A stretch of 64,000 nucleotides of DNA from sequence record MG589383; one strand, 5' to 3'. The notes beneath the pieces are model-generated. The model was not told the DNA's origin, did no database searches, and saw nothing but the letters and a program-made list of their open reading frames with translations. The DNA is from Shigella phage phi25-307. Below are positions 33,431-54,528 of the stretch, piece after piece (position 1 is the stretch's first letter; every line of letters begins with the position of its first letter). The translations under genes were made by a program, and so were the position numbers.

Positions 33431-34411
33431 TTATTTCAGTAAAGTTACTTCAGAGATTTCCTCCCAACCATCTTTATCAGTTGAAATAAAATCTGCTACG
33501 TAAAGAGCCGTACGTAATGATACATTGCGAAGACGAGATACGTTAGCCTTCATCCAGGACAATGCTTTATACGTTTCTGCATCCGTCAGACCACGTTTCT
33601 GCATCATGTCAGTAGATAATATTACATCTTCAACTCGAACCATAATCTCTTCATTAGAGTGTACTCCAAGGTCGAGATACACTGAACGAGATACTAAAGC
33701 TTGAAGGTGTGGGGCAAGTTTCGAACCGCGTTCTAACTCTTTATCGATATCAACGTTAGTAATGAAAACGATAGTACCTTCAAACTCAAATTCTTTATCA
33801 ATACCCTTATCATCGAGATAAGATGACGCAGTGCTCCAACAAACTTTGCGTTTATCTCCGGTATCTAATGCTGCTTTAAGAAGGTTCAAGATGTCCATAT
33901 CTGAGAATACGTCAACGTCGTCGATTAAGAGAACGCTGTCTGCATCACGGTTGAGCCAAAGTTGTTCGTAAAGGCCAATACCAGAGATTTTACCATTAAT
34001 GCTTTTGTATTTGATGAAACCGTTATCATTAGCATTATTAAGTGCTTTATCCAGAGAATACGTCTTACCAATACCAGCTGCACCTGAAATAATGAGTGAA
34101 CGAATTTTACCATCGATAATGCCATTCGTCATCATGTTCATTACTTTAAAGCGTTTGTTGATACGAGTTTTCATATCTTCAGTGCTTTCAACAACTGCAA
34201 CTGGTGACGTCTCAACTCTTTCCATTACGATGTCTGATTTGAAGACCCATACTCCACGTTCAGAACCATCAATCATAACGAAAATTTTACCATCACCTAA
34301 GTGGGAACATTCAGGATTAAGCTTTGCCGGGAACCAGGTCTTTGTGGCAACATAAGAACCAGAGATTTCGTTATTACGATAGATACCTTTTTTGATTTGA
34401 ACGTTGAACAT
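33431..34411 (-). CDS. P-loop NTPase (326 aa)
   Basis: Walker A GAAGIGKTYS, Walker B LLIDDVD; ATG at 34411 with RBS GGAGAA. Confidence 0.6.
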   Translation of the reverse strand: MFNVQIKKGIYRNNEISGSYVATKTWFPAKLNPECSHLGDGKIFVMIDGSERGVWVFKSDIVMERVETSPVAVVESTEDMKTRINKRFKVMNMMTNGIIDGKIRSLIISGAAGIGKTYSLDKALNNANDNGFIKYKSINGKISGIGLYEQLWLNRDADSVLLIDDVDVFSDMDILNLLKAALDTGDKRKVCWSTASSYLDDKGIDKEFEFEGTIVFITNVDIDKELERGSKLAPHLQALVSRSVYLDLGVHSNEEIMVRVEDVILSTDMMQKRGLTDAETYKALSWMKANVSRLRNVSLRTALYVADFISTDKDGWEEISEVTLLK

Positions 34412-34449
34412 TTTATTCTCCAATTTACTCATTTCGTTTCGATAGGTCT

Positions 34450-34480: not shown

Positions 34481-34699
34481 TTATTTGCGACGAGATTTTT
34501 TGGTAAGAGGTTGAAAGAACACTGCTTTACCGGCTGGGGTTAAGGTGACTCGTAATGCATTACCGATTCCTAAGGATGCTTTAACTAAACCTTTAGCTTT
34601 CAGTTCACCGAATGCTTGACGTTGTTCTGCATCACGAGTGTTAACCATAAGACCTTTATCACCTGCTTCACGAATCATTTCTAACATTTTGGTTTTCAT
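34481..34699 (-). CDS. hypothetical protein (72 aa)
   Basis: ATG at 34699 with RBS AGGAGAACAAA. Confidence 0.5.
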   Translation of the reverse strand: MKTKMLEMIREAGDKGLMVNTRDAEQRQAFGELKAKGLVKASLGIGNALRVTLTPAGKAVFFQPLTKKSRRK

Positions 34700-34727
34700 T
34701 TTGTTCTCCTCTTGTTTTGATAGGTCT

Positions 34728-34756
34728 ATAGTATCATATCCTAAAAGCATGTACAC
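34728..34756 (-). promoter_or_regulatory. early promoter variant (GTGTAC -35, TACTAT -10)
   Basis: gataggtctatagta ... gtacac. Confidence 0.4.
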
Positions 34757-34778
34757 TACTTTTTAAAAATATTTTAAC

Positions 34779-34797
34779 CCCCTAAAGGGACCCGAAG
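34779..34797 (-). terminator. hairpin GGGACC-UUCG-GGUCCC after the secreted-protein gene (terminator-like)
   Basis: 6 bp GC stem with UUCG loop; short U-tract. Confidence 0.45.
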
Positions 34798-34807
34798 GTC
34801 CCCACAT

Positions 34808-35089
34808 TTACTTATCGCACTTAGCAACATAATTAGGCATATCACAGAATACGGAGCGAGTAACTACTCGGCCCTTTGACCATGCTTCAGTTGCTTGTCC
34901 GGCCGTGCTATTAATATAGCTTGATCTAATGTTCTCAATACCCTGAGAATGTGATGCATTTACCGAACCATTAGAAGGCCCAGAAGACTGGTTACCACCA
35001 GCTCCTGCACTACCGCCAGCAGCACCCGTGGTAGCACCAACAGAGAATGCCATCATTACTGCGAATAAACCAATTACTAATTTTTTCAT
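34808..35089 (-). CDS. secreted Gly/Ser-rich small protein (signal peptide)
   Basis: MKKLVIGLFAVMMAFSVGA signal-like N-terminus; late promoter TATAAATA upstream. Confidence 0.55.
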   Translation of the reverse strand: MKKLVIGLFAVMMAFSVGATTGAAGGSAGAGGNQSSGPSNGSVNASHSQGIENIRSSYINSTAGQATEAWSKGRVVTRSVFCDMPNYVAKCDK

Positions 35090-35120: not shown

Positions 35121-36110
35121 TTATTTATAGTAAGAATTATGATTTTCGAGATAGACTTGTTCAAGGAAGTCATCCCAGAAACTCATATCTACTTTTTGTT
35201 GCATGCCGTTCTTGGCAGCTTGTTCTGATGCTTGTTCAACTTGGTCAACGATATCTTCTAGGAATTCTTGTACAGTTTTAAATGTATGTTTACCAAGCTT
35301 AACATCGAGAATAAATGGAGCATCCTGAAGTGGGTAAACCAGGTCGCCTGTTTTGTAAATTTCCAATAATTGAAGTCCACCACGACATGCATGACTCAAT
35401 GCTTTCCAGTCAATACCTTCGTTAGCTTCTGCCTTACGAGCACGTTCACCATAGTTCTCTTCCAGTTTAACCAGGATGGCATTGAACTCTTTATTGGTTA
35501 ACGTGTCTTGGAATTTACGGTCTAACAGATTATAGAATGTTTGCTTACCTGTTTTCTCGTTTTCAGTTTCAATCCACGAAGCAAATTCACCTACGGGCAG
35601 AACATTCTTCATATGTGATAAACGAATTACTGCACCATTATCAAAGTATTGTCCCCATTCATTAGAACGTTTAAGGGCTTGACGAAGAACAGCCAGTCGA
35701 GAACCCTTGACGCCGTATTTAGAAGCTTGCTTACGAACATACCCTAAATAAGATTTCATGTTAGTAGTATAGAAACGAGACCTGTTGTCTTGAATATACT
35801 TCCACACGTCAGGCAAATCAGATTTAACTACTAAACTTGGTGGAGTGTGAAGCATATCTAATGCGACGGTTTCACCATCCGCAGCTAGTTTAAAGAAATA
35901 TTTGAGACTATACAACTCATGGTCCACGTCGTCTTTTGTGTTCTTAGAAGATGTGTTATTCGTGTTCTTGCTCATATGTTCTTTAACGTTACCGGTCAAG
36001 ATGTCACGAGCATGAGGGACGTAAATTTCTTTAAAATCAACGTCAGATTCAGGAGTAGACGTTCCATAAAGGTGGCTACCAAAGTAGCCTTTCATAATTG
36101 TTTTCATCAT
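35121..36110 (-). CDS. nucleotidyltransferase-fold protein (329 aa)
   Basis: N-terminal YFGSHLYGTSTPESDVDF = GS...G...TPxSD[IV]D Pol-beta-type NTase motif. Confidence 0.6.
   Translation of the reverse strand: MMKTIMKGYFGSHLYGTSTPESDVDFKEIYVPHARDILTGNVKEHMSKNTNNTSSKNTKDDVDHELYSLKYFFKLAADGETVALDMLHTPPSLVVKSDLPDVWKYIQDNRSRFYTTNMKSYLGYVRKQASKYGVKGSRLAVLRQALKRSNEWGQYFDNGAVIRLSHMKNVLPVGEFASWIETENEKTGKQTFYNLLDRKFQDTLTNKEFNAILVKLEENYGERARKAEANEGIDWKALSHACRGGLQLLEIYKTGDLVYPLQDAPFILDVKLGKHTFKTVQEFLEDIVDQVEQASEQAAKNGMQQKVDMSFWDDFLEQVYLENHNSYYK
35122..35129 (-). promoter_or_regulatory. late promoter TATAAATA
   Basis: exact T4 late -10 consensus on minus strand about 33 nt upstream of ATG at 35089. Confidence 0.5.
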
Positions 36111-36580
36111 TTAGCCTTATATTCAAGAGTAGGACAGACTTTTTCTTTACGAGCTTTAAGGTATTCGCCTATTAATGATTTCTTACGTTCAATAGGCTCA
36201 AGTCCATTTTTAATTCGTTCTTGGTTTTGCGCAATGAACTCAATTTCTTTATAATATTTTCTGTCGTTATATTTGTCTAACAACCAAGATGGACCAATTA
36301 TCAACCCGGCAGAAATAAAAGCCATGACTGATACCATTAAAATGCCTACGCCAATTGAGGCCGGAACTAATGTCCATAGACTGCTAAAAACAAAGAATCT
36401 AGTTAAAATTTCCTGGCCAATGATTACGACTGCTGCTAAAATCGCAAATCCAATAATTGAAACAGACAATACTGGGATTAACGTTTTCCAAAAATAAGCA
36501 CACAACGTTTTAGGGCGATTCCATGTACTATTGAACGCGGCATAAATTTTAAAGTGCCAAGAGTTTTCATTGATAATCAT
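36107..36580 (-). CDS. membrane protein (157 aa)
   Basis: two or three predicted TM helices. Confidence 0.5.
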   Translation of the reverse strand: MIINENSWHFKIYAAFNSTWNRPKTLCAYFWKTLIPVLSVSIIGFAILAAVVIIGQEILTRFFVFSSLWTLVPASIGVGILMVSVMAFISAGLIIGPSWLLDKYNDRKYYKEIEFIAQNQERIKNGLEPIERKKSLIGEYLKARKEKVCPTLEYKAK

Positions 36581-36589
36581 AATAATTCC

Positions 36590-37120
36590 TTATTTCAAAG
36601 TCGGGATAATAGAATCAAGATAAGCTTTAAGAGCAACTGCTTCATCTTTGTCTAATGTAATGATATGCTGACGAAGGTCATCAATTTGACGAATAACTAC
36701 GACATCACCATCTTCATACGAAGGATTAACGCCTAGGACTGTTGTATAGTCAGGGCGGTCCTGATTTGTAATAAAAGCATTACGGCATTTAGCCCATTGA
36801 AGTTTGGCCTTTTTGGCTGTTTCAGATTCCACGAATTCTTTCACCTTAGTGACGAATGTTTTCCAATTATTAATAGAAAAACATTCGTCTTCAGTTTCGA
36901 TATTAACCCCACTATAAAGTCCATGATAAAAACGAACTTGGAGGTCTTCACCAATGTTAATTACAGATGCATGTCCCGGTGGATTGAGTTTCAAAATCTT
37001 GTCCAGTTCCATAGGAAGAATAGTAGCAGCATCATCTTCTTGTGTCAGAACATACACATAACCACGTTTTTCGATACATAAATCACCAAACAACTCGGTT
37101 GTTTCAATTACAGTTTTCAT
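36590..37120 (-). CDS. hypothetical protein (176 aa)
   Basis: ORF. Confidence 0.5.
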   Translation of the reverse strand: MKTVIETTELFGDLCIEKRGYVYVLTQEDDAATILPMELDKILKLNPPGHASVINIGEDLQVRFYHGLYSGVNIETEDECFSINNWKTFVTKVKEFVESETAKKAKLQWAKCRNAFITNQDRPDYTTVLGVNPSYEDGDVVVIRQIDDLRQHIITLDKDEAVALKAYLDSIIPTLK

Positions 37121-37436
37121 ATTATTCACCAATTAAAGTTTCAACAAAATTCACCAAAGCATTCTGGCAAGCATCAACCTGATTTTCATAAAAGTCTTCG
37201 TTATCATTTACCGCATGATAAGCTACATCATTCAAATCTGAATCAGCTTCACGTAAGTCACGGATAAGGTCCATCAATTTATTAGCTTGTTCACGGGTCA
37301 TTTTACCATACTCGTTTCAATAAGATTCACTATGCCGTTTACCATGTTATAAGTAAACATCGGATAATTGTATTGTACTACAACATAAGCGATAAGCAAA
37401 AGTTTCATTTTGTTCTCCATTTGTTTTGGTAGGATT

Positions 37437-54371: not shown

Positions 54372-54448
<77 letters not shown>

Positions 54449-54454
54449 AATATA

Positions 54455-54528
54455 TGACCCAGACCAGATTCGAACTGGTAACCTTTCCCTTATGAGGGGA
54501 CTGCTGCTAACCGTTGAGCTACAGGGCC
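54455..54528 (-). tRNA. tRNA with CAU anticodon (Ile-lysidine type or Met)
   Basis: manual fold: T-arm ACCAG-TTCGAAT-CTGGT, anticodon loop CTCATAA; acceptor has one U-U mismatch and the D-arm is atypical. Confidence 0.6.

Follow-up and report, generated by a model that had tools for sequence, protein, structure and literature searches.

The Pnkp/Rnl1 pathway of bacteriophage T4 is the founding example of RNA repair in the arms race between phages and their hosts. Nucleases of the RloC type excise the wobble nucleotide and have been proposed to defeat this repair. Other nucleotidyltransferases include the MNT antitoxins, which AMPylate HEPN toxins, and HalB, a defense-system oligodeoxyadenylate synthase that is paired with the HalA effector.

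A family of nucleotidyltransferases linked to RNA ligation is RlaP, which, according to Iyer et al. (2021), occurs with RNA ligases in jumbo phages more often than any other nucleotidyltransferase; they predicted that, ahead of ligation, it puts back nucleotides lost after endonucleolytic cleavage by enzymes such as RloC (PMC7824862). Two RlaPs from RtcB operons of Pseudomonas fluorescens and P. aeruginosa were described by Carruthers, Fatma and Huang (bioRxiv, December 2025). These enzymes add one or two NMPs, or dNMPs, onto an RNA 3'-OH, prefer Mn2+ or Co2+, act preferentially on the 5' half in a mimic of cleaved tRNA, leave DNA and E. coli proteins unmodified, and partially rescue aminoacylation of a tRNA that is missing one anticodon-loop nucleotide (10.64898/2025.12.29.696909). 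The 2.1 A structure of PfRlaP from the same work comprises an N-terminal nucleotidyltransferase domain and a C-terminal helical domain, the final helix of which packs back on the former, and T4 NrdC.11 was placed there in a separate PF10127 SSN cluster (5 versus 1a) and labelled as of function unknown. T4 tolerates a deletion of nrdC.11-mobD.3 (PMC9825161).

Here we analyze an open reading frame of Shigella phage phi25-307 (record MG589383) within a stretch of 64,000 nucleotides, referred to below as the window. A previous reading of the letters alone, made by a model and called the sequence-only reading below, had described the product as a protein with the Pol-beta nucleotidyltransferase fold and of unknown role. 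By its sequence the protein belongs with T4 NrdC.11, which we class as a divergent long-form RlaP (PF10127) Pol-beta nucleotidyltransferase with an active-looking site.

Gene structure and orthology

The nucleotidyltransferase ORF at 35121..36110 on the minus strand is real and encodes 329 aa; its N-terminus is MMKTIMKGYFGSHLYGTSTPESDVDFKEIY and the protein opens with MMKTIMKGYFGSHLYGTSTPESDVDFKEIYVP. It is present exactly as the sequence-only reading had it, and the N-terminal motif quoted there corresponds to residues 10-26. Homologs in 1534 phage records and thousands of cluster representatives, together with invariant motif residues, show that the frame did not arise by chance. There are two adjacent candidate ATG start codons (36110-36108 and 36107-36105), the second of which is used in many records and yields 328 aa. 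The gene ends with the minus-strand codons TAC TAT AAA TAA, the TAA stop lying at 35121-35123.

From the sequence comparisons we regard the product as the Mosigvirus ortholog of T4 NrdC.11. Identity to T4 nrdC.11 is 78% at the amino acid level over the full length (tblastn), and the T4 reference record carries the matching gene nrdC.11, with the product "nucleotidyltransferase" (NP_049709), between mobD and nrdC.10. PHROG 388 ("nucleotidyltransferase") is matched over aa 1-329 with an E-value of 4.6e-126. The 1534 phage records with homologs (tblastn) include phages of Escherichia, Klebsiella, Aeromonas, Acinetobacter and Vibrio, among others. Nucleotide identity across the region is 97.7% with Escherichia phage AV112 and phages related to it, and 97% with phages ST0 and SA79RD, which are classed as Straboviridae, Tevenvirinae, Mosigvirus. 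A 100% identical protein is already in NCBI under the annotation nucleotidyltransferase, and near-identical NCBI proteins are named "nucleotidyltransferase" or "RNA repair pathway DNA polymerase beta".

Many deposited T-even genomes label this gene "thioredoxin", and Pfam finds RlaP only and no thioredoxin fold; the label was apparently carried over from the locus name nrdC.11. The gene should be named RlaP-family (NrdC.11) nucleotidyltransferase rather than "thioredoxin" or "hypothetical protein". A separate observation concerns GEC-3S (NC_025425.1 53229-53897) and Shigella phage SFHK24, where the homolog match is broken into two pieces that together cover no more than 669 nt (40% identity), which indicates that these phages carry a shortened gene.

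Family assignment and active site

The protein matches Pfam PF10127 (RlaP, "RNA repair pathway DNA polymerase beta family") with an E-value of 1.1e-12 and 48.6 bits (gathering score 23), a match that covers aa 7-138 only and corresponds to profile positions 23-145 of 249. An exhaustive HMMER search against 50%-identity cluster representatives retrieved 3228 sequences at E<=1e-3, of which 743 reach E<=1e-30. Of the 150 top relatives listed, nearly all align over almost the full length. Searches of NCBIfam and PADLOC with the protein gave no match.

Conservation was evaluated in an alignment of the query with 70 homologs (71 sequences) of 33-52% identity. The residues G11, S12, G16, S22, D23, D25, N57, D63, Y132, R223, K236, R243 and G273 are invariant in all 71 sequences, and Y124, Q128, K131 and G136 are nearly so. 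Conservation is concentrated in four blocks, namely aa 10-33, 56-89, 103-140 and 220-275, and is poor in aa 141-219. The hG[GS] motif is present as F10-G11-S12 (G11-S12 at 36075-36080), the [DE]x[DE] metal-binding pair as D23-V-D25 (D23 at 36042-36044, D25 at 36036-36038), and the third catalytic carboxylate as the invariant D63 (35922-35924) on strand 62-68. The sequence-only reading had named loss of the catalytic Asp pair in homologs as the observation that would count against it; D23 and D25 are retained in every one of the 71 sequences.

The relationship to canonical RlaP, a protein of about 255 aa, is distant. Profile alignment with hhalign connects the nucleotidyltransferase domains of the two types with 94% probability (E 9.5e-8) and pairs D23, D25 and D63 with D42, D44 and D75 of canonical RlaP, D75 being invariant there as well. 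phmmer does not connect canonical RlaP with the NrdC.11 type, and a comparison of C-terminal profiles only is not significant (E 0.14). A resemblance noticed by eye in this domain, K-x3-[HY]-A-x-R (K236..R243 against K152..R159 of canonical RlaP), was not supported, hhalign placing the columns elsewhere with low confidence.

Predicted structure and domains

An AlphaFold2 model built on the 71-sequence alignment has a pLDDT of 93.6 and a pTM of 0.82. The model consists of an alpha/beta core up to about residue 100 with alternating strands and helices (pLDDT 96-98), followed by a long helix at 119-155, a small beta element of three strands at 177-201 and, at 206-328, a bundle of helices. In nucleotide coordinates of the minus strand, the N-terminal Pol-beta nucleotidyltransferase core (~aa 1-100), which is delimited by the invariant residues, the hhalign match and the model, occupies 35811..36110. 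The conserved block of aa 101-140 (35691..35810), recognized from the conservation profile by W103, nR..FYT and GY...QA.KYG.KGSRL, contains the start of the long helix 119-155. The variable region of aa 141-219 (35454..35690), which includes the beta element, shows the lowest conservation in the alignment and a lower pLDDT; this region probably accounts for most of the ~75 residues by which the protein exceeds the canonical 255-aa RlaP, and may be an insertion. The C-terminal helical domain of aa 220-329 (35124..35453) carries the conserved basic motif YG.RA..A..N.G.DWKA.SHA.R with R223, K236, H240 and R243, followed by TGD..YPL and by VK.G, the latter with K271 and G273. What had been described as an extension of roughly 250 residues is thus a conserved helical domain of ~230 residues that is modelled with confidence.

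The top-ranked PDB matches of the model are Pol-beta nucleotidyltransferases (HalB, 3c18, KNTase and LinB). At the sequence level, neither the single protein nor the 71-sequence profile found anything relevant in the PDB. With an intact catalytic triad and with Pfam, alignment, model and PDB matches in agreement, the fold first suggested from the N-terminal motif is confirmed. Among predicted viral structures (BFVD), phage "nucleotidyltransferases" of 240-290 aa align over their whole length with target-normalised TM values of 0.5-0.7 at 12-14% identity. The BFVD search also shows that baculovirus HE65 and several giant-virus "nucleotidyltransferase" proteins share the fold (E 1e-4 to 1e-6), which suggests that RlaP-like enzymes may occur in eukaryotic viruses too.

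Phage neighborhood

The nucleotidyltransferase gene is part of an operon-like run of overlapping genes on the same strand. Immediately upstream is a gene for a predicted membrane protein of 157 aa (36107..36580, minus strand; annotated "membrane protein" in ST0; no Pfam match), the TGA stop of which overlaps the nucleotidyltransferase start in the sequence ATGATGA, an arrangement that suggests co-transcription and translational coupling. It is preceded by a gene for a 180-aa protein (36590-37132, minus strand) that matches both domains of the T4 y05I-like putative transcription factor (PF24449 8e-40, PF24448 3e-19); the same protein is 46% identical to T4 MobD.1. From promoter annotations in SA79RD and general knowledge of T4 we infer that the run is transcribed before replication. 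A fixed-spacing scan for a MotA-box middle promoter on the coding (minus) strand upstream of the gene gave no match, so the early or middle timing is drawn from these annotations and that general knowledge.

On the downstream side, the sequence-only reading had proposed that the stop codon overlaps a late promoter for a secreted Gly-rich protein. The protein is there, encoded by an ORF of 93 aa (34808..35089, minus strand) that combines a signal peptide with a Gly-rich region and is a neighbor of the enzyme, not a part of it; it has a weak YbgS-like match below the cut-off (E 0.0067) and is found in ST0 and SA79RD and absent from T4. As to the promoter, the T4-type late-promoter consensus TATAAATA at 35122-35129 (minus strand) does overlap the last two sense codons and the TAA of the nucleotidyltransferase gene, precedes the ATG start of the 93-aa ORF by 32 nt, and is annotated as a T4-type late promoter at the same site in SA79RD. 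In the window, however, the octamer TATAAATA is not enriched (7 occurrences versus 7.6 expected by chance), and the late-promoter call therefore relies on position and precedent rather than on statistics. A terminator-like hairpin (34776-34792) is located 3' of the 93-aa ORF, which, with TATAAATA before it and the hairpin after it, appears as a small unit of its own.

Further downstream is the ortholog of NrdC.10 (33431..34432, minus strand), which has 333 aa and 77% identity to T4 NrdC.10. It contains the Walker A motif GAAGIGKT; matches to AAA_22, AAA_16 and STAND-type families are all sub-threshold, and PADLOC gives no match. This AAA-type ATPase was considered as a conserved partner of the nucleotidyltransferase and rejected, as the two genes are neighbors only in T-even phages (0/80 bacterial and 0/3 distant phage loci). 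Between the Gly-rich gene and nrdC.10 there is a 91-aa ORF without a Pfam match (34481-34756, minus strand), the segment of which (~277 nt) is an indel, absent in ST0 and SA79RD and present in AV112-like phages.

No RNA ligase gene is found near the gene within the window. In the close relative ST0, RNA ligase 1 and polynucleotide kinase are encoded ~86-90 kb from nrdC.11, and in phage phiN3 an RNA ligase gene flanks the NrdC.11 homolog on either side. Two unrelated phages have a homing endonuclease gene directly next to their nrdC.11 homolog, namely T4, with mobD upstream (L002 7930-8709), and Sinorhizobium phage phiN3, with a putative homing endonuclease gene downstream (L004 7033-7659); the window contains no homing endonuclease gene.

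Bacterial relatives and their RNA-repair context

Relatives outside phages were collected by scanning one genome per bacterial and archaeal species for the pattern DWKA[LIV][SH]HAxR. The scan found 141 NrdC.11-type relatives of 33-52% identity, several of them on megabase-sized chromosomal contigs. ORFs were called in 80 loci that were kept, and neighbors were clustered for the 73 of them where the called ORFs included the homolog.

The commonest neighbor at these 73 loci is a ~255-aa protein that matches the full PF10127 model at 1e-77 and is the canonical RlaP. Its gene is present at 19/73 loci, in most of them immediately downstream on the same strand, the two genes often overlapping by 4 nt or lying a few bases apart (loci L012, L015, L022, L024, L033, L045, L055, L060, L071, L074, L076, L080 and L086, among others). 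Since the two genes co-occur side by side in bacteria, the NrdC.11 type and canonical RlaP are paralogs whose roles are probably not identical. An apparent fusion of the two in a 601-aa frame (L073) is an artefact of ORF calling in GC-rich DNA and was discarded as Rosetta-stone evidence.

RtcB is encoded at 8 of the 73 loci and TROVE/Ro60 at 4, either or both being present at 10. For example, the gene order is TROVE, x, RtcB, x, NrdC.11-type, RlaP at L030 and RtcB, NrdC.11-type, RlaP at L084. A Pfam scan of 121 operon-like neighbors of bacterial NrdC.11-type genes matched 17 members to RlaP, 3 each to RtcB, AAA_33 and DEAD helicase, and 2 each to RNA 3'-phosphate cyclase (RtcA) and RNase III.

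Proposed role and alternative explanations

According to the sequence-only reading, nothing in the sequence settles whether nucleotides, proteins or RNA are modified. This was too pessimistic, because the protein is a PF10127/RlaP member and a T4 NrdC.11 ortholog with bacterial relatives in RtcB/Ro60 operons, and the characterized RlaP enzymes modify RNA at its 3'-OH end but neither DNA nor protein (10.64898/2025.12.29.696909). Our analysis establishes the family, shows that the active site is intact, and documents both the fold and the RNA-repair context of the bacterial relatives. The chemistry, i.e., addition of 1-2 NMPs to an RNA 3'-OH, has been demonstrated for distant Pseudomonas members, and by analogy the phage enzyme would have the same activity.

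With slightly more confidence than doubt, we propose that the phage enzyme restores nucleotides to nuclease-trimmed tRNA before resealing by Pnkp and Rnl1, both the activity and the target being extrapolated from relatives. In this scheme, one or a few NMPs would pass from NTP to the 3'-OH of damaged RNA without a template, in a site where D23, D25 and D63 would coordinate a pair of divalent metal ions and where conserved basic residues of the helical domain (K131, R223, K236, H240, R243 and K271) would position the triphosphate and the RNA. The enzyme would act preferentially on the 5' half left when a host anticodon nuclease, for example RloC, cuts a tRNA in its anticodon loop and then trims it, and the restored end could then be processed and sealed by the phage polynucleotide kinase/phosphatase and RNA ligase 1. 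Since Rnl1 needs exactly a 3'-OH and a 5'-phosphate, the incompatibility noted for RtcB (10.64898/2025.12.29.696909) should not arise in the T-even phages.

A more specific version, which we consider possible but unlikely, is that the NrdC.11 type is a functionally distinct second RlaP, of which the T-even phages took the long form only, and that it rebuilds a defined nucleotide, e.g., the wobble base of tRNA-Lys, as a dedicated counter to RloC. The variable beta insert would then act as the specificity element. The position of NrdC.11-type genes directly upstream of canonical RlaP in RtcB/RtcA/Ro60 operons implies that two nucleotidyltransferases could divide the work, and the division might be by nucleotide, by end, or within a heteromer.

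It is unlikely, and a shade more so, that the enzyme adds nucleotides to RNA 3' ends for some other purpose, such as rebuilding or maturing the 3'-CCA of tRNA or tailing host or phage transcripts to alter their stability. The family and the active site are equally compatible with such a function; Pseudomonas RlaP labels rRNA-sized RNA, full-length tRNA and cleaved tRNA with little NTP specificity (10.64898/2025.12.29.696909), the window carries the adjacent phage genes for tRNA-Arg(TCT) and tRNA-Met(CAT) (54372-54528, minus strand), and the homolog of Erwinia phage Hena1 is ~2 kb from an annotated tRNA nucleotidyltransferase gene. Against this, there is no Pfam match at E<=1 to PF01743 PolyA_pol or the CCA-adding families, RlaP favored the internal break over the acceptor 3' end in tRNA-half mimics (10.64898/2025.12.29.696909), and the bacterial relatives are found beside the ligation-type genes RtcB, RtcA and Ro60 rather than beside tRNA maturation genes.

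Synthesis of a free oligonucleotide or nucleotide signal in the manner of HalB or the CD-NTases, which would mimic or jam a host defense signal, appears improbable: identity to HalB is 14-16%, with scores typical of any Pol-beta nucleotidyltransferase, the characterized RlaPs extend RNA and make no free products (10.64898/2025.12.29.696909), and the bacterial context is RNA repair and not defense effectors. The kinship to CD-NTases put forward earlier likewise finds no PADLOC family or Pfam CD-NTase match, and the genomic setting is a phage early operon.

Nucleotidylylation of a protein or a small molecule, as by the MNT antitoxins or the aminoglycoside and lincosamide nucleotidyltransferases, has a similarly slim chance. 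Kinship to the MNTs is not borne out, PF01909 NTP_transf_2 scoring only 13.4 bits (E 0.11; cut-off 21 bits), and the features of MNT antitoxins are missing, with 329 aa instead of ~100-150 aa and no neighbor with a HEPN match. A HEPN RNase active site within the helical domain was also considered and rejected, the domain having H240-x2-R243 in place of an Rx4-6H motif. The resemblance to aminoglycoside nucleotidyltransferases is confined to the fold (8-12% identity, TM near 0.3; no Pfam or NCBIfam match), and Pseudomonas RlaP left E. coli proteins unlabelled (10.64898/2025.12.29.696909). A catalytically dead structural or regulatory remnant is highly improbable, for, although the gene is dispensable in T4 (PMC9825161) and shortened in some phages (e.g., GEC-3S), the metal-binding and motif residues are all invariant across a very large and diverse family that is conserved over its whole length.

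Novelty and implications

The orthology to NrdC.11 and the membership in PF10127 are already in databases and the literature, so that the finding itself is known. What we add is modest, namely that the NrdC.11 type represents a long form of its own, marked by the variable region of aa 141-219, that the bacterial NrdC.11 type is typically paired with canonical RlaP and embedded in RtcB/RtcA/Ro60 operons, and that the T-even phages carry the long form only (no second RlaP is encoded within the 64-kb window). The classification will not surprise a specialist; the gene does provide a testable hypothesis on how T-even phages answer wobble-excising nucleases. If nucleotides are indeed put back as we favor, NrdC.11-type enzymes would supply a third component so far missing from T-even tRNA repair, and the retention of a gene that is dispensable in the laboratory, in more than 1500 sequenced phages, would be accounted for.

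Comparison with known systems

The antibiotic-modifying enzymes KNTase ANT(4') and LinB differ from the phage protein in their antibiotic substrates and have no sequence match to it at the family level. Hailong HalB (PDB 9dbh) is also different, with 217 residues; no HalA-like partner is encoded here and PADLOC gives no match. The Pseudomonas RlaPs and the phage protein share PF10127, the G-S, D-x-D and third-Asp residues, the arrangement of an N-terminal core and a C-terminal helical domain, and the occurrence of relatives of both types in RtcB operons. They differ in being ~75 residues shorter than the phage protein, whose aa 141-219 hold the beta element, and in a C-terminal domain that is not alignable by sequence, and it is for the Pseudomonas enzymes that activity has been demonstrated. 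The closest system is T4 NrdC.11 itself (COG3541/PF10127). In T4 the homing endonuclease gene mobD overlaps the 5' end of nrdC.11, where the gene for the 157-aa membrane protein is found here, and T4 is without the two small ORFs (the Gly-rich one with the late promoter and the 91-aa one) between nrdC.11 and nrdC.10. In both phages the enzyme has the same sequence motifs, and its gene precedes nrdC.10 within the early tk-nrdC region.
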